A stretch of 47,897 nucleotides of DNA, taken from assembly GCA_900552975.1 (NCBI GenBank), contig UWSL01000001.1, positions 1 to 47,897 on the forward strand, written 5' to 3'. The first letter of the stretch is position 1; the number at the start of each line of letters is the position of its first letter. Position numbers and translations under genes: made by a program. Under the pieces are notes generated by a model. The model did not search any database and was not told the origin of the DNA. It worked only from the letters and a program-made list of their open reading frames with translations. This DNA comes from an uncultured Mycoplasmatota bacterium. GTDB lineage: Bacteria; Bacillota_I; Bacilli_A; RF39; UBA660. Positions 9,164 through 45,651 of this stretch are shown here, piece after piece.

Positions 9164-10140
9164 TGAAAATAGCATTAATTGGAACAGGAGTTTATGGAAT
9201 GTCTATGGCTCTAATGTTAAATAAAAATGAAAAAAATATAATAATGTGGTCTGAATCACAAGAAAGATATAAAAAATATTTAGAAGATGGCTGTATCAAG
9301 GATATTATTCCAGGTATTAGTGCCCCTAAAAACATAAAACTAACTTGCTCATATGAAGAAGCAACTAAAGATGCTGATGTCGTTTTTATCATTTCTACAG
9401 CTGCCTTCGTTAGTTCAATCTGTAATGAAATAAATCAATATATAAATAAAGATACCGTTATATGCATTGCCTCTAAAGGTATCGAAAATCATAGTTGTCG
9501 TTTCTTAAGTGATATTGCTTATCAAACCTTAAAGACGAAAAATATCGCTGTCATATCAGGTCCATCATTTGCTATAGACATGGTCAATAATAATCCTATT
9601 GGTCTTTCTATTGCTTCCAAAGAAGAAAAAGCTATTAATACTATCAAAAAAGTTTTAGAAAGTGATACCATAAAATTAAGAGAAACTGATGATTTAATTG
9701 GTATTCAAATATGTGGTAGTATCAAAAATGTTATAGCGGTTGCCTCAGGCATACTAAATGGATTAAATTATCCAGAGTCAACCCAATGTTTCTTAATTAC
9801 TGAAGCTTTAAACGATATAAAGAATTTAATAGCCGCTTTAGGAGGAAATGCTAAAACAATCAATTCTTTTGCTGGCGTTGGTGATCTTATCCTGACCTGC
9901 ACATCTACTAAAAGTAGAAATTATAGCTTTGGAAAATTTGTTGGACAAGGTGCTACTAAAGAAGAAAAAAAAGTCTATTTGCAAGAACATACAGTCGAAG
10001 GTTACTATACTTTAAAAAGCATCTATAAACTTGTACAAACTCAAAATATTGAAATGCCCATCATTGATTTAATTTATAAAATAATAATCAATGATGAAAA
10101 TCCTCAAGAATTAATAACTTTTTTAATCAATAAAAAATAA
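9163..10140 (+). CDS. gpsA: NAD(P)H-dependent glycerol-3-phosphate dehydrogenase
   Basis: 325 aa with an N-terminal Rossmann motif (IALIGTGVYG) and GSIKNVIAVASG. The start overlaps the rarA stop. Confidence 0.85.
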   Translation: MKIALIGTGVYGMSMALMLNKNEKNIIMWSESQERYKKYLEDGCIKDIIPGISAPKNIKLTCSYEEATKDADVVFIISTAAFVSSICNEINQYINKDTVICIASKGIENHSCRFLSDIAYQTLKTKNIAVISGPSFAIDMVNNNPIGLSIASKEEKAINTIKKVLESDTIKLRETDDLIGIQICGSIKNVIAVASGILNGLNYPESTQCFLITEALNDIKNLIAALGGNAKTINSFAGVGDLILTCTSTKSRNYSFGKFVGQGATKEEKKVYLQEHTVEGYYTLKSIYKLVQTQNIEMPIIDLIYKIIINDENPQELITFLINKK

Positions 10141-34958: not shown

Positions 34959-36782
34959 TTAAGTAAGTAATGATTCTTCATCTATTTTCCCATCTAAATC
35001 TTCATTTTTATATTCTTCTTTTTGAATTAAAAACTCATGCAAATTAAAAGCTACTTGTTCAGGTAAAATTTCTTCTAGCTCTTCAAGAGAAGCTTTTTTT
35101 ATTTTACTAACACTACCAAATTTCTTTATTAAAGCTTTCTTTCGAACAGCTCCTATTCCCTCTATTTCGTCTAAAACACTGCTAATACTTCCTTTACTTC
35201 GTAAGGTACGATGATAATTTATCGTAAAGCGATGGACCTCATCTTGCATCCTTGTTAAATAATGAAAGACATTGCTTGTTCGATCAAGTTCAATTACATT
35301 CAAATCAGTATTTAACAAATCATTAGTTCGATGATGATCATTTTTCTTTAAACCAACAACCCTAATCGTTAAATGTAAAAGCTCTAATACTTCCATCGCT
35401 GCTCTAATTTGATTTTCCCCACCATCAACAATTATCAAATCAGGTAACATTGTTTTTTCAACCATCGCTCTTTGATAACGGCGATAAATAATTTCTTTCA
35501 TTGTATTATAGTCATCATTAACATCTACTGATACTTTATACTTACGATATTCATTACGAGCCGGTTTACCATCAATAAAGACAACCATTCCCGAAACAGC
35601 AAAAGTTCCGAAGAGATTCGAATTATCAAAAACATCAATCCTATATATTGAGTCCATTCCTAATATGTTGGCTAATTCTTCATTAGCAATAGTTGTTCGT
35701 TTTTCATCTTTAACAATCTCTTCAAACTTATTATGTAAATTCAATTTAGCATTATCATAAGCCATTTTAACTAAGTCTTTCTTAACTCCTTTTAAAGGTG
35801 CCAAGATATTTGTCTTAACAACACTCTTAATATTCTCAACATTCAAATCATCCGGTACTAAGATTTCCTTAGGAACCTCATTTTTCATATAAAATCCTGC
35901 AATAAAATATTCCACTTCATCTAAAACATCTAAATTAAGAGGAAATATAACATTCTTATGGTTTAGTAATTTACCATTTCTAATAAACAAGATTTCAATC
36001 GAAAGATACCCATTATCAACATAATAACTTATAACATCACGGTCAACAAAATCATGTAATTCAACCTTTTGCTTGGCTAAAACAATATCAATATATTCTA
36101 ATTCTTTTTTTAATTCCAAAGCCATTTCAAAGTTTAAATTCTCACTATAAAAGTTAATTTTTTCCATTATTTTATCTTGTAAGAAACTCGTCTTACCATG
36201 TAAAAAATCTAATATTTCTTGTTCCATCTGCATAACTTTTTCGTTATCTACTCGTTTACTACAATATCCTAAACATTCTCCAATATGGTAATATAAACAA
36301 ACATCTTTAGGTGATCCTTCACACTTTTTTAAAGGATACAATCTATTTAATAAATTAACAATTCTTCGCGCTGCATAAGCATTTGGATAGGGTCCAAACA
36401 ACTTTTTATTATCTTTCTTTCTTATATTTAAATATCTTGATACTTTTAAACGTGGATAAGGTTTTGATATATATTCAATATATGGATAACTTTTATCATC
36501 CATTAACATAATATTATACTTTGGCTGAAATTTTTTAATTAAATTAATTTCAATTATAAAAGCTTCTAGTTCTGATGAAGCAACAATATATTGAAAATCA
36601 TCTATTAACGAAACCATTTTAGCTGTCTTACCAGTATGAACTCGATTAAAATAAGAAGAAACTCTCTTATGTAAATCTTTCGCTTTTCCAACATAAATAA
36701 TTACACCATTTTTATCTTTCATCTGATAAGAACCAGGTTTATGTGGTATCAAAGCTAATTTTTCTTTAAACTTCTGCTCCAT
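34959..36782 (-). CDS. uvrC: Excinuclease ABC subunit C
   Basis: 607 aa with an N-terminal GIY-YIG domain (GSYQMKD...VIIYVGKAKDL), the UvrBC-interaction region and a C-terminal (HhH)2. Confidence 0.9.
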   Translation of the reverse strand: MEQKFKEKLALIPHKPGSYQMKDKNGVIIYVGKAKDLHKRVSSYFNRVHTGKTAKMVSLIDDFQYIVASSELEAFIIEINLIKKFQPKYNIMLMDDKSYPYIEYISKPYPRLKVSRYLNIRKKDNKKLFGPYPNAYAARRIVNLLNRLYPLKKCEGSPKDVCLYYHIGECLGYCSKRVDNEKVMQMEQEILDFLHGKTSFLQDKIMEKINFYSENLNFEMALELKKELEYIDIVLAKQKVELHDFVDRDVISYYVDNGYLSIEILFIRNGKLLNHKNVIFPLNLDVLDEVEYFIAGFYMKNEVPKEILVPDDLNVENIKSVVKTNILAPLKGVKKDLVKMAYDNAKLNLHNKFEEIVKDEKRTTIANEELANILGMDSIYRIDVFDNSNLFGTFAVSGMVVFIDGKPARNEYRKYKVSVDVNDDYNTMKEIIYRRYQRAMVEKTMLPDLIIVDGGENQIRAAMEVLELLHLTIRVVGLKKNDHHRTNDLLNTDLNVIELDRTSNVFHYLTRMQDEVHRFTINYHRTLRSKGSISSVLDEIEGIGAVRKKALIKKFGSVSKIKKASLEELEEILPEQVAFNLHEFLIQKEEYKNEDLDGKIDEESLLT

Positions 36783-37248: not shown

Positions 37249-37323
37249 AGTATCACCTCTCCAAATTATAACACATAAAATTATAATTCCAATTTATAAA
37301 AAATAACATAACTCAGAACATAC

Positions 37324-37355
37324 AAAAACCCCGTCTTTATATAACGAAAACGAGG
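37324..37355 (-). terminator. Terminator after the giant-protein pair
   Basis: On the minus strand, CCUCGU-15 nt loop-ACGGGG followed by U5. Confidence 0.45.
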
Positions 37356-37393
37356 CTTTTCCATAATTTCATCTTCAAAATTCAAAAAAAGGA

Positions 37394-37615
37394 TTATTTT
37401 TGAATTTTTTTTAAAATCAATTCATCACTTTCCATAGAATTTAATTTATTATGAACCATTTCTTTTAAGCATTCCGGTGAAACTTCATCAGTAAAAGAAT
37501 TTATATCACTTTCAATTAAATACTTAACATAACTTAAATTATCATTTTTATCATATTTTTTTACTACTTTTAAACCTTCTTGTAAAGAAAGTAATTTTTC
37601 TTTTTCTTCCATCAT
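37394..37615 (-). CDS. 73-aa acidic helical protein translationally coupled to the giant protein
   Basis: Its ATG overlaps the giant gene's TGA (ATGA at 37612-37615). No motif recognised. Confidence 0.6.
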   Translation of the reverse strand: MMEEKEKLLSLQEGLKVVKKYDKNDNLSYVKYLIESDINSFTDEVSPECLKEMVHNKLNSMESDELILKKIQK

Positions 37616-40600
37616 AATGTAACACCTTCACTTTTTTTCATTTCCTGTAATTGTTCCACATATTCTTTTATCTTTACAATTGCTATATCACGTCTTTTTA
37701 ATATTGCATCAAGTAAATCTTCACCATGTTGCTTAGCTAATTTATAAGCATAATCTTTAAAAATATTTTTATATTCTTCATCAGTTAACAAATTTACTTT
37801 TTCTATTGTATCTAAAATAACCGACAAATCAAGACTTACCTCACCTTTTTTATATCTATCAAACAAGATTTGATAAATAGGAATACGAGCCGTTCCATTA
37901 GGTGTATATGAAAAGTCAGGATTTAATGAATTAGGATCACTTATAAATCTAAATGACTGTTCTTTATCTATTCCTCGAACATTGTTATTAGCATCGACAA
38001 TAAAATTACCAACAAAACAGTCAAAATTACATAACAAGAAATCTACTACATATTCTCTTAATAAAGCATCCGTATAATGTTGCTCTAATTCTCCCCCATT
38101 TTGAACCCATTTTTCTAAAATATGAGCATTTTCATTACTAAAATCAATTAATTCTTGCTTTGATAATTTAATATTACCACCAAAACTCTCTACTTTAACA
38201 GCTGTTTCTGGGGAAAGAAATTCCTGTAATTTTGAAGCTGCTGCTTGTATTTCAGCCCTAAATGGTTGTGAAGCCAGTTTTTGTTTATCAACTGCTGGCT
38301 TTAGAAGATAATTTTTTTCACCTTCTTGATACTTATACATAATTCCAGATTCTCCCAATGCCGCTTCTTCTAACTTAATAATTTCCTCTTTCGCGAAAGT
38401 ATTCAAAGTTAACAAACTCTTTCTAAATATTTCAATCTTTTTCAGACTTTTTTTAGCAGTTGGCAAATCAACAATTATCAAATTGACCATCGCTTCCATT
38501 TCAATTAAAGATTTATATAATTCTTCAAAAGAAATTTCTTTATTACGATATTTTTCATTTAATATTTCTGTACAATCAGTAATTTTCTTTTCAATTGTAC
38601 TTATATCATGGCACACTTTTATTCCATCAAAGAAGATATCTTCCATCGCTTCTTTCGTTGGTTTTTCTTTAAACTCAGCCAACGCCTTATCTGCACGAGC
38701 TTTTTTTCTATCATCATAAGCTTTTACATTAAACTTAATTATTGGTATATCAACACCCAAAAATTCTGAAAAATATTTTGCAGCACGAATTGTCTCCTCA
38801 TTAGGTTTAGCACCGACACAAGCAAAAGCACAAGGCAACATTCCTTCTCTAAACCCAGCTACTTCGTTATATTCACCATTTTTATAACAACTACATTGAT
38901 TTAGACCATCAATTGTTGTAAAAGCATTTTTATCAGCTGTAGGTTCTATCTTATAGCCACCATGTTCAACAAATAAATCACGTCCATCCATAAATAATAA
39001 AAATTTTTCTGGTAAATTATTAAATAAATAAATCACTCCACATTCATTAGTATTATTCAAAAACCAAAATCCTTTATCAGAAATAGAAGAAGTAGATAAC
39101 GTTGAAGCACCCTCTAATTTAGTCCATAATGATGGATCTTGTTCTAACTTATTCTTAAAACCTTGCATACTTTTATCATAAGAATATATTCGATGAGCTA
39201 AGAAGTTAAATTTTTCACTATCCATTTCAATAATTGTGACTCCGTATGGATTATCAACAGCATCTTTTTCTAATCTTTTACTTTTAATATCAGTAATCTG
39301 CGTAAGATGAGCATTAAACTGATAATTATAAAGCATTCTCGTCTTAGCAATAATTTCTCTTACATCATTAGCAAAATCAATTACATTTCCATTTTTATTA
39401 ATAAATGTTGCCATCAATTCACGTAACTCAGTAACATTATGGGATTCAATAATTCTTTCCATTAAAGTAATAATACTTACATCTTTTTTATTATAAAAAC
39501 ATTTTTTAAAAATCTCCGATGCTTTCTCTAAACCATACTTTTCTATTATATCAGTTCTAATAGTCTTTAAATTTACATAATTATTTAATTGAAAATTATT
39601 AAATTCTTTTTCTAAATCATTATAATTTACATAACCAAATAATGTTGCTAAAGCATTTTTCAATTCTAAAACATTTTGTGCTTGTAACTTTTGTTGCCAA
39701 AATTCTTTTGTAACAACATCAAATCTTTTTAATTCATCTAATGTCTTTATTTGATAAATATTTTGCCCAACAATTATTTTCTTCAAATTTTCTAAATCAA
39801 TACTTGATATTTTTCCAGAGTTATCCAATACATCTAAAATTAATTCTTTTACTTCCTTAAAATTACGAAAAGCATAATGAACTTTTTTATCATCATTTTC
39901 AAAAATACCATATTCATTTATAAGATTATAATAATCTACTACTAATCTTTGATTATTACCTTTTATTTCATCACACAAAACTGCCGCAGCCGGTGTATTA
40001 TACTTAATAAGATCTTTAACAAAATCAACACCAAATAATGGATAAATATATTTTACAACATCGTAACTAAAGATTGGATTTTTCTCTAAAGTATTTAATT
40101 TACCAGTTGCTTTTAATATAATTGAAGCATTGGCTAAAACTTCTTGAATATCTTCTTTAAAGAAATCTATTCCAACCTTTGGTAAAAACATAACTATTTG
40201 TTTAAAATCAACGCACTCTAAATTTTCATTTTCAAAGTTAGTTACATTAGCAAATATTTCTTTTAACCTTACATCATTTTTATCTAAAACATCTTCATCC
40301 TTAATATTAGCTAATATATATGAAACAACATACTGACAATCTTTAAAATTAGTTACATCAAAGCTATCAAAATGAATCAATTTTAAAACTTTAGGCAAAG
40401 TCATATTTTCAAAAGCAATTTTAGTTAAATCCGTAACTTGACTATACATTTCCGCAGTAAAATACTCATCAGGAGCCATAAATAAAGCTGCCGGATTAGT
40501 TTTTAAAGCCGCAATAATAAGTTCTTCATCTAACTCTATTTTTTGCACAATCATGTCCAATAAATTACCATTTATTCCTAAAGCCTTTACTGCTAATTTA

Positions 40601-43600
40601 TGAAAATTAATATTTTCTACTGAAAAATCAAAAATCAAATTAACATTAACATCTAATAATTTATTGCATATATCAAAATCACTTTTTAAATTATCAGGTA
40701 AATACTCATAAACACATCCCATATTGTAATTAACTAACTTTAAAGCAGTCTCTTTATCTGTAACTAAATTTGGAATATAAGTAAATACAATCGGATACTT
40801 TAACAAATTAGCTTTAGCAAATTCAATTATTTTATTACTAGTATGATCAACATACTTAAAAACATTTTCATTGGCAGCTAAAGCTATTTCAAGTATTTCC
40901 AAATCATTTTGAAAATCTTTATTTAGTAAACTATAAACCCTAGATATTCGATCACTAGCAATATTAGTTATTAACCTTAAAACAAGATTCCTATCTTTTA
41001 AAATATCCGGAAAATAAATATACAACTCTGGATATTTATCAATATTATCTTTGGCAAATTGGTATAATTCATCATCATTAATATCAACATAGTCTATATA
41101 ATAGAAAGGAGCATCAGCAAAGTATCTTTTAGCTAGTTTTTTCTGCATCGTATCAGTTACAACTTTTTTATCAAAACTATTTAAAAGCCAACAAAATACC
41201 TCTTTTCTCTTTAATGAATCAATTGTATCTAAAATTTTTTCTATTTCAGTTAAACCTTCTTCTGTTTTAAGCAAACAATCAATTTGATAAAAAATTGCAA
41301 ATTCATCTTTAGTCGAAAATTTATAACTATTAAATCTATCAAAATCTATACCATAAGCATCTATTATCTTTAATACATTTTTATTAGTATTAAAAGTTAA
41401 TCTTTTAATACTATAACTTTCATAAAGAAAACTAATTATATCTCTTTGATAAATATCATCAATTAATTCTTTAAACAAATTATTAAATGGACTATCCTCA
41501 TTAATTATTAATCTATCTGCTAAGTACAATAATTTTTCCATTCCTAAATTAATTAAAATTTCCTTATCAATCATCTTATTATTTAATAAACCAACTCTAA
41601 TAATATTTGGATCAGAAATAAAAGAAAATTCATATCCCTTCAAAAGAGCATTATTAATAAATTCGTCAGATAAATAATTAGAACCAAAATCTATTATATT
41701 TGGATAAAAATCTAAAACTCCTTCCATAACTTCTTTTGTTATAAAACGTTTATCTAAATATTTTAATAATTCTGGGTTAACTTTAATAAGTTCAACTATA
41801 GAATTTGTTTCAATATCATTAAACAATGAAAATGCACATAATTCTGGATTCTTTTTAGCTAAAGCTTTTAATAAATCAAGATTTTTTCTTTTTTCTACAT
41901 CTAATAATTTAAATACATCAGGAGTATCTTCTATATATTTACAAAGTATTTCATTATCATTTAATATTTCTGGAAAAAAGATAACATATCTTGGATTATT
42001 ACCTAACCTGATTTTTAAATATTCTAATTCTTCCTTAGAAAAATTAATTTTCCTTAAATAAAGATTAAAATATCTATTTTCTAAGATCTGTTCTTCTGGG
42101 AAATATCCTCCAAGTAATGCTCTTTTTAAAACATCTTCTTCAATCTTATTACTATAGTAAGAAACAAAATTATAATGTCCTTTCATAACCATTTTTCTTA
42201 TGATATATAGTTTAACGTCAGAAGAAACACGATATGATTTAGCTAACTCTTCAATTTTTTCCAACGAAAGACTATTAAAAATTTTATCTAAAAAAATCTT
42301 ATTATCTAAAACTGAATCAATATCTATGATATTAAACATATTATAATCTTCTTTTGGTAACATTTTAATTAATATATTAAAATCTATATGAATCTTTTTC
42401 TGCAATTTTTTTATATTTTCAGCAGAATAACCATTCTTATACATAACAAAAAATAACTTTGTTGCGTCAATAAAATACATCGCATATTCTGTATCAATTA
42501 CATTAATTAAAGTATTAACAAGTTCTTCTTCATTTTCTTTAGTAGCAAATTTACTTATAACATTCCCATTAAAAACAGGATATTTTTTAAAATCTTCAAA
42601 AGTATAACTACTACTTAATAACTTCATTGCATTAGTATTTTCAATTTTTTTAAAACGCGTAAAAATTGTATAATTAGCATCATCAATATATTTGTCAATT
42701 AATAAAGTAACAAACTTACTATAATCAGCCAATTCTTCATTCGGTAAACCACCATTTAAAAAACTATAATATGAATCGACCAATTCATCTATTTTTTCTG
42801 AGTACATCACATTTGACAAATGTTTAATTCCACGTGAATCACCATGATTTAACATATACATAATTGTTTTTACATTCATATCAAACGAACCATCTATCAA
42901 AGAACATAACTCATCATATGACATACCACCTAATATAGCTTTTTCAATAAGATTGATATCTTTATTTTTACTTATTATCTCTTTCAAATAAGAAGAATTT
43001 CTATCTAGATATTTTTCCATTAAAACAGGTATATTTTTAATATTTTCCGGTAACTTTAAATATTCTTCATAAGTCAAATTATCTAGTCCCATTTTAGTAA
43101 GTGTATCTGAAGTTATGATAATAGAATTTTTATTTTTTTCATCCAAAACATCATAATGTCCTTCTTTAACAAATTTATATATCCAAGCTAAAGATAAAGA
43201 AAAATCACCAAAAACTTCTTTTGCATTTAAATATAATTCATAATTAACTTTATCATAATATTTATCAGCTAATTTATCACTATAGACTAATAATAGTGGT
43301 AAAAATTCCCCATTTTCTATAAATGCTTCAATTAAAATATCATTTTTTTCACTTTTGCTAAAATGTTTTTGAAAATCAACCGCTTTAAATCCTAGATCTA
43401 TTAATCTCTTAGCTACCGGTAAAGAAATATCCAATTTTCCATCATCAAAAAAAGTCCATTTATCATACAATATTCCTCTAAGTAACGCTGTTCGTGCTTC
43501 AGTAACAGGATGTCCTAAACTATAATACTCATCTAAATTAACTTTTCCTTCTTTTATCAAGCTATAAACGTACTCAAAGCTTTTCAAATTGATTAAAGTA

Positions 43601-44640
43601 TCAGGTAAATATTTAATTAATGAATAATCACCTTTTCCAGCTAAGTAATATATAAATTCAGGGGAATCAACGAGATTACTATAAGAATTTAATCTTTCTA
43701 GCGGAATTCCACTATTATCTATTATTTTAATAACTTCTTCATTAATTGCCCCACTTTTAGCATACATTAAAGCATCCATTTTACCTTCTTTCAAAAACTG
43801 TAAAAGAAGTGCTGAACTATTTTGATATGCTCCTCCATATAAAGAATAATCAGAATAAGAAAAATTAGCCATTTTAACTAATTCGTCTGACGGATTACTA
43901 GCAAAAATTAATGCTTTACTTCCACCTATTTCAATTAATCTTTTTACTACAGCATCATCATTTAAAATTGAAATTTCTTCACCAACAAAATAATTAGTAA
44001 CTATTAAATCAAAAAAAGCATTAAAATCGAAATTATCAAATTTACTAAGTTCAGTTAATATTTTTTTTAACTTTTCATTTTTCATATATGTATATGTACC
44101 AAAATATTTATCTAACCATTTATATTGACCTTTCGTAATTTCGGCAGCAATTAAATAAGGTGCAACATCAAATTTCCTGTTTAATATCGACTCTCTAAAT
44201 TCTGGATAATCATTATATAATTTTATCTGAACGTCATCAAGAAGATAATACTTTTCAACAATTGTTTTTAAAGAAATACCTTTACTAAAAAAATATTCTA
44301 AATCATTCACTTCAAAAGCAAATCCATCATTAAGCAATTTATCTTCATCTAAATAATATTGATCTAAAATTTTGCGATAAAAAGCATCCGAAACAAAAAA
44401 TTTAGTAAGTAGTAAAAACTCCATATTTTCTGAAACATTTAGTTTTTCAAAAAAAACTTTGTCATTTTTATATTTATCTAGAAAAGAAAAATATTTTAGA
44501 TGAATTTTTTCACGATAATTTTCAATTATTTTTGTAAAGTCATCAAATAATGAATCAATTTCTAATCCATACTCTTCTAAAATTTTTTTTACACTTTCTT
44601 CATCTAATAGTTCTAACATTTTCTTTATATCGTCTTGCAT
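37612..44640 (-). CDS. Giant (2342-aa) leaderless multidomain protein: helical repeat scaffold (DUF4116-like units), Cys-rich unassigned domain and C-terminal PI3/4-kinase-like atypical kinase core
   Basis: An uninterrupted 7 kb ORF with no signal peptide or TM helix visible. Repeats of the NPELLKYLD / NENVFKYVD / TNPAALFMAPDEY type lie at 40460-42003. The C-terminal region reads YLLKP...FRAEIQAAASKL...DFLLCNFDCFVGNFIVD...GIDKEQSF (37615-38355). Confidence 0.75.
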   Translation of the reverse strand: MQDDIKKMLELLDEESVKKILEEYGLEIDSLFDDFTKIIENYREKIHLKYFSFLDKYKNDKVFFEKLNVSENMEFLLLTKFFVSDAFYRKILDQYYLDEDKLLNDGFAFEVNDLEYFFSKGISLKTIVEKYYLLDDVQIKLYNDYPEFRESILNRKFDVAPYLIAAEITKGQYKWLDKYFGTYTYMKNEKLKKILTELSKFDNFDFNAFFDLIVTNYFVGEEISILNDDAVVKRLIEIGGSKALIFASNPSDELVKMANFSYSDYSLYGGAYQNSSALLLQFLKEGKMDALMYAKSGAINEEVIKIIDNSGIPLERLNSYSNLVDSPEFIYYLAGKGDYSLIKYLPDTLINLKSFEYVYSLIKEGKVNLDEYYSLGHPVTEARTALLRGILYDKWTFFDDGKLDISLPVAKRLIDLGFKAVDFQKHFSKSEKNDILIEAFIENGEFLPLLLVYSDKLADKYYDKVNYELYLNAKEVFGDFSLSLAWIYKFVKEGHYDVLDEKNKNSIIITSDTLTKMGLDNLTYEEYLKLPENIKNIPVLMEKYLDRNSSYLKEIISKNKDINLIEKAILGGMSYDELCSLIDGSFDMNVKTIMYMLNHGDSRGIKHLSNVMYSEKIDELVDSYYSFLNGGLPNEELADYSKFVTLLIDKYIDDANYTIFTRFKKIENTNAMKLLSSSYTFEDFKKYPVFNGNVISKFATKENEEELVNTLINVIDTEYAMYFIDATKLFFVMYKNGYSAENIKKLQKKIHIDFNILIKMLPKEDYNMFNIIDIDSVLDNKIFLDKIFNSLSLEKIEELAKSYRVSSDVKLYIIRKMVMKGHYNFVSYYSNKIEEDVLKRALLGGYFPEEQILENRYFNLYLRKINFSKEELEYLKIRLGNNPRYVIFFPEILNDNEILCKYIEDTPDVFKLLDVEKRKNLDLLKALAKKNPELCAFSLFNDIETNSIVELIKVNPELLKYLDKRFITKEVMEGVLDFYPNIIDFGSNYLSDEFINNALLKGYEFSFISDPNIIRVGLLNNKMIDKEILINLGMEKLLYLADRLIINEDSPFNNLFKELIDDIYQRDIISFLYESYSIKRLTFNTNKNVLKIIDAYGIDFDRFNSYKFSTKDEFAIFYQIDCLLKTEEGLTEIEKILDTIDSLKRKEVFCWLLNSFDKKVVTDTMQKKLAKRYFADAPFYYIDYVDINDDELYQFAKDNIDKYPELYIYFPDILKDRNLVLRLITNIASDRISRVYSLLNKDFQNDLEILEIALAANENVFKYVDHTSNKIIEFAKANLLKYPIVFTYIPNLVTDKETALKLVNYNMGCVYEYLPDNLKSDFDICNKLLDVNVNLIFDFSVENINFHKLAVKALGINGNLLDMIVQKIELDEELIIAALKTNPAALFMAPDEYFTAEMYSQVTDLTKIAFENMTLPKVLKLIHFDSFDVTNFKDCQYVVSYILANIKDEDVLDKNDVRLKEIFANVTNFENENLECVDFKQIVMFLPKVGIDFFKEDIQEVLANASIILKATGKLNTLEKNPIFSYDVVKYIYPLFGVDFVKDLIKYNTPAAAVLCDEIKGNNQRLVVDYYNLINEYGIFENDDKKVHYAFRNFKEVKELILDVLDNSGKISSIDLENLKKIIVGQNIYQIKTLDELKRFDVVTKEFWQQKLQAQNVLELKNALATLFGYVNYNDLEKEFNNFQLNNYVNLKTIRTDIIEKYGLEKASEIFKKCFYNKKDVSIITLMERIIESHNVTELRELMATFINKNGNVIDFANDVREIIAKTRMLYNYQFNAHLTQITDIKSKRLEKDAVDNPYGVTIIEMDSEKFNFLAHRIYSYDKSMQGFKNKLEQDPSLWTKLEGASTLSTSSISDKGFWFLNNTNECGVIYLFNNLPEKFLLFMDGRDLFVEHGGYKIEPTADKNAFTTIDGLNQCSCYKNGEYNEVAGFREGMLPCAFACVGAKPNEETIRAAKYFSEFLGVDIPIIKFNVKAYDDRKKARADKALAEFKEKPTKEAMEDIFFDGIKVCHDISTIEKKITDCTEILNEKYRNKEISFEELYKSLIEMEAMVNLIIVDLPTAKKSLKKIEIFRKSLLTLNTFAKEEIIKLEEAALGESGIMYKYQEGEKNYLLKPAVDKQKLASQPFRAEIQAAASKLQEFLSPETAVKVESFGGNIKLSKQELIDFSNENAHILEKWVQNGGELEQHYTDALLREYVVDFLLCNFDCFVGNFIVDANNNVRGIDKEQSFRFISDPNSLNPDFSYTPNGTARIPIYQILFDRYKKGEVSLDLSVILDTIEKVNLLTDEEYKNIFKDYAYKLAKQHGEDLLDAILKRRDIAIVKIKEYVEQLQEMKKSEGVTL

Positions 44641-44728
44641 AGTCTCAACTCCTATTATAACTAATTATATCATACAATATATAAACTCCAAAGTACCATA
44701 TGGTATAATAAATAAAAGAGGTGTCCTT

Positions 44729-45082
44729 ATGAAATTATTAAAAGAAGTAACTATTGAAATAAAAAAATCCAAGTTTATTGGTTTATGTTATGAAATATCA
44801 TCACCAGAAGAAGCGAAAAAAATCATCGAAGATTTAAAAAAAGAACATAAAAAAGCTCGGCATATTCCCTATGCTTACAAAGTTAATAACACAGCCAAAA
44901 AAACTGATGATAAAGAGCCATCTAACACAGCTGGATTACCTATATACAATATTTTGGAAAGAAAAAATTTAAGCAATCATTTAATTGCTGTTATAAGATA
45001 TTTTGGTGGCGTAAAACTTGGAGCTGGTGGCCTAACAAGAGCCTATAGCGAAGCTGCTAATGAAGCATCTAAAGACATTTAA
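44729..45082 (+). CDS. yigZ: IMPACT/YigZ-family protein, N-terminal (UPF0029) domain only
   Basis: 117 aa with DDKEPSNTAGLPI and RYFGGVKLGAGGLTRAY. It is shorter than the usual two-domain ~200-aa YigZ. Confidence 0.7.
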   Translation: MKLLKEVTIEIKKSKFIGLCYEISSPEEAKKIIEDLKKEHKKARHIPYAYKVNNTAKKTDDKEPSNTAGLPIYNILERKNLSNHLIAVIRYFGGVKLGAGGLTRAYSEAANEASKDI

Positions 45083-45115: not shown

Positions 45116-45651
45116 TACACGAAATAAAAAGTGTGTAAATTTTTTGATGGCAAGAAAATATAGACATTTTACGAAAGAAAAAAATTAAAAAAGAAGGAGG
45201 ATAACGGAATGTTTCATTCTTTATTGCTGCATATAGTACTGAAATTTTAGTATCGTGTATTGGTAAATCACTAAATAATGATTTATAAAATACAATTTAA
45301 ATTTATTAAAAAATAGTGATTATAAATTAGATGATGTAATACACACTCAAATCGTGGATGATATATAAAAGTAAAATATATAATACAAAAACCGCTGAAG
45401 TGAATCTTATTCCAAGTATGTCGGCTCCTTATACCTGCACACATAATCCCTGAATAGAAACACTCAACGGTCAATTTAAAGATTTCATCAAGAACAATTA
45501 TCTCAAAAATCTTGATGAACTACAAATTGCCTTAAAACAATTTGTATACCATTGCATACTATATATAATAACGTAAAAATTAAGAATAAACTAAAAACTA
45601 CACCAATTAATTATCGATGTAGTCATGTTTAGAAGTTTTTTATTTCGTGTA
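45116..45651 (+). pseudogene. Decayed IS element scar (rve/DDE transposase C-terminal remnant, IS3-like) between 15-bp inverted repeats
   Basis: The inverted repeat is tacacgaaataaaaa (45116-45130) and its reverse complement (45637-45651). The plus-strand translation around 45320-45580 is broken by stops but reads ...VIHTQIVDDI*...SMSAPYTCTHNP*IETLNGQFKDFIKNNYLKNLDELQIALKQFVYH. This resembles the SMSrkGnc.DNa.iEsf.g.lK.E...el...i..yi tail of IS3-type transposases. Confidence 0.45.

Follow-up and report, generated by a model that had tools for sequence, protein, structure and literature searches.

The question raised by this locus is what role a protein of 2,342 amino acids (aa), encoded together with a partner of 73 aa, might play in a small-genome gut bacterium. 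Both genes lie on a 47,897-nucleotide (nt) stretch of DNA, hereafter referred to as the window, from an uncultured Mycoplasmatota bacterium (GTDB lineage Bacteria; Bacillota_I; Bacilli_A; RF39; UBA660; assembly GCA_900552975.1, contig UWSL01000001.1, positions 1 to 47,897 of the forward strand). A first-pass annotation, made from the sequence alone, had described the pair as an undescribed two-gene system, and it does form a conserved unit that falls into no described family, with DUF4116 as its only Pfam match. Given its accessory behaviour, its phage-type enzymes and its fast-evolving, recognition-like region joined to a constrained catalytic region, the pair is best explained as a chromosomal, vertically inherited and dispensable intracellular conflict module, probably directed against phage. 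We infer this function tentatively and give it somewhat less than an even chance.

A conserved and translationally coupled gene pair

The giant gene (37612–44640, minus strand; 273 kDa, pI 5.0) and the small partner gene (37394–37615, minus strand) were both confirmed by the open reading frame (ORF) listing, and the previously noted overlap of the small ATG with the giant TGA, as ATGA, is present in the sequence. Full-length homologues at 33–97% identity, with the small ORF downstream in every family locus, indicate that these are genuine ORFs and not chance ones. An artefact of reading TGA as Trp (code 4) was considered and found unnecessary, as both ORFs are intact under table 11 and relatives stop at the same place. 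A word-indexed search returned 11 giant homologues, six of them full-length at 48–97% identity and four matching over half of the query at 39–42%, and the conserved 863 aa at the C-terminus, used in an exhaustive profile search, returned 892 representative proteins at E ≤ 1e-3. The genomes encoding the full C-terminal module are those of uncultured gut Bacilli, including Candidatus Coprovivens; other carriers are metagenome-assembled genomes from rabbit, rumen and Hadza humans labelled Bacilli, Erysipelotrichaceae or Firmicutes. Searches of the whole giant protein and of five separate segments, as the first-pass annotation had proposed, against Pfam, NCBIfam, PADLOC, PHROGs and PDB sequences found DUF4116 alone; for the pair as a unit NCBIfam gave one meaningless match, and no PDB entry was matched by the sequence of the giant protein. 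None of the three main components, namely the ART-like (ADP-ribosyltransferase-like) domain, the kinase domain and the small partner, has a curated family.

Each of the 19 fetched loci that extend past the 3' end of the giant gene has a homologue of the small ORF (64–73 aa) directly downstream. Throughout the family this ORF overlaps the giant stop codon or adjoins it, in most loci with the same 4-nt overlap, and it keeps its place behind the giant gene in L007, L016 and L017, whose genomic context is different. A profile of the small protein recovered 19 loci at E values of 1e-19 to 1e-30 and gave nothing significant in approximately 50 genome loci carrying the kinase domain only, so that the partner goes with the giant family, not with the kinase domain in general. 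The tight coupling proposed in the first-pass annotation is thus borne out by a small ORF strictly conserved with the giant gene. The small protein evolves faster than its giant neighbour (28–47% against 37–53% identity) and may be called acidic only in a mild sense (pI 5.1); two homologues are neutral or basic. Its matches to PADLOC RT_UG (E 4e-4, 17 bits), together with weak PHROG matches, were judged to be spurious and compositional, the peptide being rich in K and E.

The two genes most likely form a transcription unit of their own. A Shine-Dalgarno sequence, AGGAG, lies 8 nt 5' of the giant ATG (44649–44653, minus strand), and further upstream a candidate extended -10 element of the TGnTATAAT type, TGATATAAT (44664–44672, minus strand), was read directly from the sequence; it was not listed by the consensus promoter scan because no -35 hexamer passed. 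With these signals in place the giant mRNA is not leaderless, and that description, used in the first-pass annotation, holds only in the sense that the protein has no signal peptide. A Shine-Dalgarno-like GAAGGTG is located 7 nt 5' of the small ATG, within the 3' end of the giant gene (37623–37629, minus strand). The terminator reported after the pair does exist as a hairpin followed by a T-run (37326–37358, minus strand; centroid 12-bp stem), but it is weak (fold z = -1.3), and the consensus terminator scan made no call there. As a separate TG-extended, sigma-70-like promoter, TTGGAA-16-TATAAT (37265–37292, minus strand; 10/12 matches in the scan), precedes the LMWPc (low-molecular-weight phosphatase) and uvrC genes, the pair appears to be bounded on this side. 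A functional link to the adjacent LMWPc gene was considered and rejected, as LMWPc does not follow the pair in L007, L016 and L017; it is further weakened by the hairpin and promoter that stand between them.

Because no 19-residue window of the giant protein reaches a Kyte-Doolittle mean of 1.6 (maximum 1.55), it is probably cytoplasmic. No signal peptide or transmembrane segment was found in it, in agreement with the first-pass annotation, and no 19-residue mean reached 1.6 in nine homologues either. This bears upon one alternative, namely that the giant protein is delivered to other cells by an unrecognised route, where its ART-like and kinase domains would poison the recipient, the small ORF then serving as the immunity gene. 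A translationally coupled small ORF just downstream occupies the classic immunity position (PMC5576092), and phage MuF polymorphic toxins contain members of the same families as the effector domains. However, neither a signal peptide or transmembrane segment nor an LXG, WXG, RHS, MuF or other trafficking domain was found, there is no downstream array of alternative toxin/immunity cassettes, and the small ORF never occurs beside the same kinase domain in other proteins. Delivery is on this account considered unlikely. The resemblance to polymorphic toxins pointed out in the first-pass annotation extends to the downstream small gene and to the toxin- or effector-type enzymes, but not to trafficking or to the polarity of variation along the protein, which is reversed (see below).

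A predicted PI3K-like kinase domain with phage relatives

The kinase-like C-terminal core suggested by the first-pass annotation is supported by structural matches and by catalytic residues kept in 126 relatives. This domain (aa 2090–2342; 37615–38373, minus strand) was modelled with AlphaFold2 (AF2) as part of the C-terminal 863 aa, with a mean predicted local distance difference test (pLDDT) value of 69.8 and values of 60–92 for the kinase part. All of the top 50 Foldseek matches in the PDB were PI3K-gamma, PI3K-alpha, VPS34 or ATM-type kinases, with a probability of up to 1.0, a best E value of 5e-4 and template modelling (TM) scores below 0.3 for the multi-domain model. At least 90% conservation in the 126 relatives was seen for K2114, Q2162, E2196, D2200, N2205, D2207, N2212 and D2225-K-E-Q, as well as for three tyrosines and R2316. 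The sequence G2096-E-S-G2099 is, like K2114, invariant in the 12-member family, its glycines being 70–90% conserved in the wider set. A catalytic loop, D2207xxxxN2212, is followed 13 residues later by the metal-binding Asp D2225 (G-I-D-K-E-Q), and the Gly-rich loop, beta3 Lys, D-x4-N and Asp 13 residues on make up the canonical phosphotransfer set with PI3K-like spacing. The domain has no Pfam match (PF00454, Pkinase), its profile found nothing relevant in the PDB, and a single homologue gave a weak PF00454 match at the catalytic loop (E 0.1). It is probably an active member of an uncurated family of PI3K-like, protein-kinase-like enzymes.

Many relatives of this domain are parts of phage proteins, to which its homology is clear (30–39% identity, E down to 1e-50). 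When 60 non-giant proteins with the kinase domain were scanned against Pfam, 12 contained Phage_Mu_F, 3 Phage_min_cap2, 10 a Rho_N/SAP-like motif and 4 ADPrib_exo_Tox. At least 130 IMG/VR viral contigs encode the domain, and in Ruminococcus sp. AF41-9 it forms part of a 1,141-aa MuF protein whose gene lies directly 3' of terminase and portal genes. The paper on MuF toxins has no mention of a kinase (PMC5576092). A divergent kinase with a conserved Gln in the N-lobe's final strand was described by Iyer et al. in polyvalent proteins (PMC5512222), and Q2162 fits that residue, the two families being compared by description only.

Five of the 60 scanned relatives, stand-alone proteins of 500–660 aa (P0053, P0082, P0084, P0120 and P0121), consist of a classical R-S-E ART (ADPrib_exo_Tox, with LFRG ... 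STS ... ExE motifs), a helical linker and the kinase domain. This is the same order as that of the mid domain, linker and kinase domain in the giant protein, and as evidence from context it speaks independently for the mid domain having an ART-type role. A further protein, P0105, has the same N-terminal region as these ART-linker-kinase proteins and is without the ART catalytic part.

A candidate ADP-ribosyltransferase domain

The most conserved part of the giant protein is its mid domain (aa 1780–1999; 38644–39303, minus strand), a candidate for the ART fold. In 55 diverse relatives, at least 90% conservation was observed for H1816, D1822, W1839, G1844, T1847, S1849, S1851, S1854, D1888, H1893-G1894, N1925-E1926 and R1931, while T1850 was kept in at least 75% of the members. 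The first-pass annotation had called this a Cys-rich domain, but its cysteines are not conserved across the wider family, and the residues that define it are instead H1816, S1849-T-S1851, D1888, H1893-G, N1925-E1926 and R1931.

In a first AF2 model of aa 1480–2342, built with 9 sequences, the mid domain had a pLDDT of 25–35. An alignment of 45 sequences corrected this, giving a mid-domain model with a pLDDT of 90.6 and a predicted TM score of 0.89. The top eight Foldseek matches of that model in the PDB were all of the ART fold (seven chains of CteC, which mono-ADP-ribosylates ubiquitin, and the tRNA 2'-phosphotransferase Tpt1), over alignments of 168–220 columns (200–220 for CteC). In CteC, R65, S97, D134 and E220 are the essential residues, the last being preceded by an insertion of 38 residues (PMC10810742); in the mid domain R1817, S1849, D1888 and E1926 follow in the same order, at spacings of 32, 39 and 38 compared with 32, 37 and, once the insertion is removed, about 48. 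The ART triad sits in strands 1, 2 and 5 (PMC5512222). In the predicted model H1816 ends a strand, the S-T-S motif lies in the next long strand (model residues 68–75) and the invariant E1926 opens a strand (model residues 147–151), which are the positions of the triad.

Several observations tell against an ART assignment. The structural scores are weak (probability ≤0.85, E ≥0.07, TM 0.27–0.43; TM 0.42 for the best match). The strand-opening glutamate stands in a Y-N-E motif and not in [QE]xE. R1817 is invariant in the giant subfamily, whereas distant members have K, T, S, C, H, L, A or Q at that position; the invariant strand-1 residue is the adjoining H1816. Furthermore, an hhalign comparison of the mid domain with the ADPrib_exo_Tox domains of the ART-linker-kinase proteins was not significant (probability 0.04). 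On balance, the model and the order of conserved residues make an ART-fold, NAD+-using transferase slightly better than an even bet.

No Pfam family was matched by any of the 45 members, and the one PDB match of a mid-domain profile was to ribosomal protein uS2, over a beta-alpha-beta segment of 38 residues (E 0.16). A Rossmann or uS2-like reading of the domain was rejected, as it covers just that segment. A homologous-protein search with the mid-domain alignment recovered 3 fragments only, and a scan of metagenomes worked with a 5-sequence sub-alignment. No mid domain was found in IMG/VR viral contigs, and Foldseek of the mid-domain model against a viral library found nothing. MuF-kinase proteins of about 1,100 aa end in an uncharacterised domain with an NEVxFRxG[IM] motif that also occurs in the mid domain; hhalign between the two was not significant (E 0.04, probability 1%). 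One such protein, from a prophage (L040 8945–12370; 1,141 aa), combines MuF and the kinase-like domain with a Rho_N/SAP-like motif and a C-terminal domain of about 450 aa, itself uncharacterised, whose motifs H...SSTMS...RTD...SNEIMFRNG resemble those of the giant mid domain, again with no significance in hhalign.

A helical, fast-evolving N-terminal region

The remainder of the giant protein had been described in the first-pass annotation as approximately 1,700 aa of helical repeats. Repeats are indeed present, but as detectable units they are essentially confined to aa ~731–1392 (40465–42450, minus strand), where Pfam PF13475 and a self-profile search identify DUF4116-like helical units of about 50 aa. 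Pfam matched six stretches within aa 740–1479 and none within aa 1–739, and the self-profile search found eight units, of which seven lie in aa 731–1392 and one is a stray at aa 322–354; the number of detectable units is thus 6–8, depending on the search. The preceding 730 aa (42451–44640, minus strand) have no Pfam match and form a fast-evolving region with a mean pairwise identity of 0.31–0.50 in 100-residue windows. Residues 1480–1779 (39304–40203, minus strand) make up a conserved all-helical domain (AF2 pLDDT ~80–90) with no repeat array, and a helical linker predicted by AF2 (aa 2000–2089; 38374–38643, minus strand) separates the two enzymatic domains. The all-helical domain always precedes the ART-like mid domain, the two co-occurring in about 55 representative proteins. 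Distant proteins with this helical-plus-mid module at their C-terminus, lacking both the kinase domain and the small partner, were seen in L073 (5–10599), L071 (6707–10888) and L075 (8732–10696); their organisms have a G+C content of 24–27%, and one of the ORFs, longer than 3,531 aa, continues beyond the end of its contig.

Conservation along the giant protein is uneven, with a mean pairwise identity of 0.30–0.50 over aa 1–1500 as against 0.60–0.72 over aa 1800–2000 and 2100–2300. In relatives at 82% UvrC identity the N-terminus is 31–46% identical, compared with 59–76% for the mid domain and 53–70% for the kinase domain. This polarity, with conserved C-terminal enzymes (53–76%) behind a variable N-terminus (31–46%), is the reverse of that of polymorphic toxins.

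Variation within the species was followed in a single sequence pair, the window and the conspecific contig L162, and constitutes modest evidence. The two differ at 12 of 1,824 nt in UvrC and at 134 of 7,029 nt in the giant gene, and are identical in the small ORF. The changes cluster in the repeats at aa ~1140–1280 (40801–41220, minus strand) and in the helical domain at aa ~1560–1660 (39661–39960, minus strand), two hypervariable patches in which synonymous and non-synonymous rates (dS and dN) are both raised; in some 60-codon windows, non-synonymous changes far exceed synonymous ones (15.5 vs 1.5). The first 730 codons are near-invariant, the kinase domain has no non-synonymous change, and dN/dS is ~0.3 overall and 0 in the kinase. 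Such a mosaic hints that patches presumed to lie on the surface undergo recombination or diversifying change, the catalytic end of the protein being strongly constrained.

A fixed chromosomal site and repeated loss

The first-pass annotation had regarded the pair as an acquired island, a view which its surroundings contradict. The pair is found at the same junction, between Impact_N and LMWPc-uvrC, in at least six other species-level lineages at ~82% UvrC identity, the GC (strand) skew of the giant gene is the same as that of its neighbours, and the genes on either side of the pair include no integrase or other mobility gene. The shared gene order in L001/L010, L003, L005, L013, L014 and L018 is rnhC, cvpA, trxA, a Fic gene or large ORF, a nitroreductase gene, Impact_N (117 aa), giant gene, small gene, LMWPc and uvrC. 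Identity of these relatives to the window is 82% for UvrC, 68–72% for RnhC, 71–92% for Impact_N, 65–75% for LMWPc, about 50% for TrxA and about 40% for CvpA. A common junction in these relatives implies that the pair has been in place since before the lineages split. A close relative of the pair in L012 lies on a short contig without visible flanks, and a more distant subfamily (L007, L016 and L017) has the pair in another context. The G+C content is ~27% for the whole window and 0.22–0.31 in kilobase bins of the giant gene, somewhat below that of the flanking genes.

Two features that had been read as signs of an island were also reinterpreted. The supposedly truncated yigZ (44729–45082, plus strand) is a conserved Impact_N-only YigZ/IMPACT homologue, the normal form of the clade, having 117 aa in nearly all relatives examined; the form was seen in L001, L003, L005, L013, L014, L018 and L076–L081, with 121 aa in L076. 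The scar of an insertion sequence (IS) is real, consisting of a stop-interrupted C-terminal fragment of an IS3-type transposase (Pfam rve_3, E 9e-6; 45391–45630, plus strand) between Impact_N and trxA, but it occupies the place where relatives have the Fic and nitroreductase genes, of which no trace is left in the window. It therefore concerns the loss of those two genes and not the gain of the giant gene.

A survey of presence and absence in related genomes, also proposed in the first-pass annotation, was anchored on UvrC homologues and showed that the pair is not universal, being present in at least seven lineages and absent in four (L079, L076, L077 and L080), with remnants in two further genomes. 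L079 represents the sister species (UvrC 95–96% identical), in which 44 bp (9464–9507) separate Impact_N from LMWPc; it is without the giant gene, the small ORF, Fic and nitroreductase. In L078 (8894–9336), a 114-aa ORF joins aa 1–62 of the giant protein in frame to its last ~58 aa, a remnant 80–85% identical to P0002, and a frameshift has cut the small ORF to 33 aa. In L081 (8918–9483), only the 3' end remains, with the last 114 codons of the giant gene and an intact small ORF of 70 aa; L018, where the giant gene is complete, shares 99% UvrC identity with it. At least three independent losses are thus documented, one of them within a species (L018 vs L081).

These losses bear on each of the alternatives. 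For a delivered toxin, presence and absence at strain level would be in keeping, as would the small ORF left intact in L081 after loss of the giant gene, which resembles an orphan immunity gene; the loss of the small ORF in L078 speaks against it. A second alternative would give the giant protein a cellular role as a scaffold or regulator in the cytoplasm, in signalling or the organisation of the cell for instance, where it would phosphorylate and ADP-ribosylate endogenous targets with the small protein as adaptor or substrate, in a useful but non-essential capacity. The stable position among housekeeping genes across ~18% UvrC divergence, the purifying selection on the enzymatic domains, the lack of mobile-element hallmarks and the lack of a match to known defence families would all suit such a cellular function. 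However, loss of the pair has occurred both in the sister species and among members of a single species, the kinase relatives are overwhelmingly found in phage head-protein fusions, and the N-terminus evolves fast and carries hypervariable patches, so that this explanation, too, appears rather improbable, if a little less so than delivery. A third takes the pair for a selfish module of the addiction (toxin-antitoxin-like) type, or else for a domesticated phage remnant in decay, of no current benefit to the host. The phage affinity of the enzymatic domains, the two-gene layout of a toxin-like enzyme and a small partner, and the frequency of loss could be so explained. A 7-kb ORF has nevertheless been kept intact over the long term under the constraint seen against L162, it is conserved across lineages with no adjacent phage genes, and its size and downstream small gene are atypical of type II toxin-antitoxin systems. 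Moreover, the deletions are clean and include one in which the putative antitoxin was lost after the toxin (L078), which shows that the module is not addictive. This third explanation is considered very unlikely.

Other observations on the neighbouring genes were as follows. There is a 17-nt overlap (36766–36782) between uvrC and the LMW phosphotyrosine/arginine-phosphatase-like gene. UvrC has 607 aa in the window, a length of 606–607 aa being confined to the window's species and its sister, with 587–591 aa in relatives at ~82% identity. A conserved 144-aa multi-pass membrane protein, absent from the window, is encoded just 5' of LMWPc in L005 (13311–13745) and L077 (9039–9473), that is, both with (L005) and without (L077) the giant gene.

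A proposed mode of action and its significance

As an intracellular conflict module, the giant protein would be a sensor-effector in a single polypeptide. Its long, fast-evolving helical N-terminus, with DUF4116-like repeats and hypervariable patches, may provide a surface for recognition or scaffolding, and its conserved C-terminal 860 aa may comprise two protein-modifying enzymes in series. The first of these would be formed by the helical domain and the ART-like domain with its candidate active-site pattern H / S-T-S / D / N-E, and the second by the PI3K-like protein kinase, a type also found fused to MuF head proteins in phages. The small partner of 73 aa would be translated in step with the giant protein through translational coupling, and probably binds it as a cognate regulator or neutraliser. 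Sensing by the repeats, an anti-phage role, and the ADP-ribosylation and phosphorylation of targets are all predicted on these grounds from sequence and modelling. A bolder version of this proposal, to which only a small probability is attached, would make the mid domain a new ART clade (His / Ser-Thr-Ser / Asp / Asn-Glu) joined within one polypeptide to a phage-type kinase and carried by a sensing solenoid of 1,500 residues, the 70-aa partner serving as a dedicated neutraliser. The pair would then represent an unrecognised class of giant, single-polypeptide anti-phage (abortive-infection) systems derived from domesticated host-takeover enzymes that phages inject.

A number of points weigh against a conflict module. 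The giant protein had no match in PADLOC or PHROGs. The locus is not a defence island, as its neighbours are housekeeping genes and its inheritance looks vertical, whereas most defence systems are mobile. The burden of carrying 7 kb in a small genome might by itself account for the repeated loss, and the intact small ORF beside the gutted giant gene of L081 fits immunity at least as well.

The ART-like domain, the kinase domain and the small partner represent three uncharacterised families without a Pfam or PDB counterpart. With ~890 representative relatives of the kinase domain, and at least 130 viral contigs among its carriers, identification of its substrate would annotate a large amount of phage "dark matter" in the extensions of MuF head proteins. 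The pair may also be a case of domestication, in which a host makes use of enzyme types that phages inject. The sister species and the two remnant genomes are natural knock-outs, which permit comparative tests in metagenomes despite the hosts being uncultured. If the pair is not a conflict system, a signalling scaffold of ~7 kb would still be an unusual investment for a small-genome gut bacterium.

Comparison with known systems

The pair echoes phage polyvalent and MuF effectors, ART toxins and large sensor-effectors, and it matches none of these groups in full. With phage MuF toxins and polyvalent proteins (PMC5576092, PMC5512222) it shares a homologous kinase domain, found there fused to Phage_Mu_F, minor-capsid-protein-2 or classical ADPrib_exo_Tox, as well as the combination of several predicted protein-modifying enzymes in one polypeptide and a small ORF after the gene. 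It differs from them in having no MuF (PF04233) or capsid module and no prophage context, in its fixed chromosomal site, in a giant helical N-terminus unique to the giant protein, and in an ART-like domain that is not a Pfam ART.

The CteC-type, cholera-toxin-like mono-ARTs (R-S-E; PDB 8ux2, 8ht*) provide the best and sole coherent structural match of the mid domain. In both, R/H, S(TS), D and E come in matching order and at matching intervals, and a helical domain adjoins the ART or ART-like part, as it does in PARPs. Unlike the CteC-type enzymes, the mid domain has an invariant His in place of Arg in strand 1, a single N-E instead of [QE]xE and an extra C-terminal, Rossmann-like beta-alpha-beta segment (the weak uS2 match); the match itself is weak (E 0.07, TM 0.42), with no similarity between sequence profiles. 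The kinase domain resembles PI3K/PI4K-family and atypical kinases in its predicted fold and agrees with them in its Gly-rich loop, beta3 Lys, DxxxxN loop and Asp 13 residues later, but it has no Pfam or PDB sequence membership and is compact (~250 aa), with a helical C-lobe.

DSR2, which joins SIR2 to helical repeats, and the Avs/STAND proteins are large single-polypeptide anti-phage sensor-effectors. The giant protein has no detected homology to them (PADLOC negative), possesses two predicted tandem effectors and a dedicated small partner, is encoded by a gene about twice the size, and lies outside any defence island with no sign of horizontal mobility. It nevertheless resembles them in being, as predicted, a cytoplasmic protein with a long helical or repeat-containing putative sensor, an NAD+- or ATP-using effector and a patchy distribution. 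With the defence systems of PADLOC-DB in general, the pair shares its variable occurrence among close relatives, in which it is present, absent or reduced to a remnant at one and the same junction.

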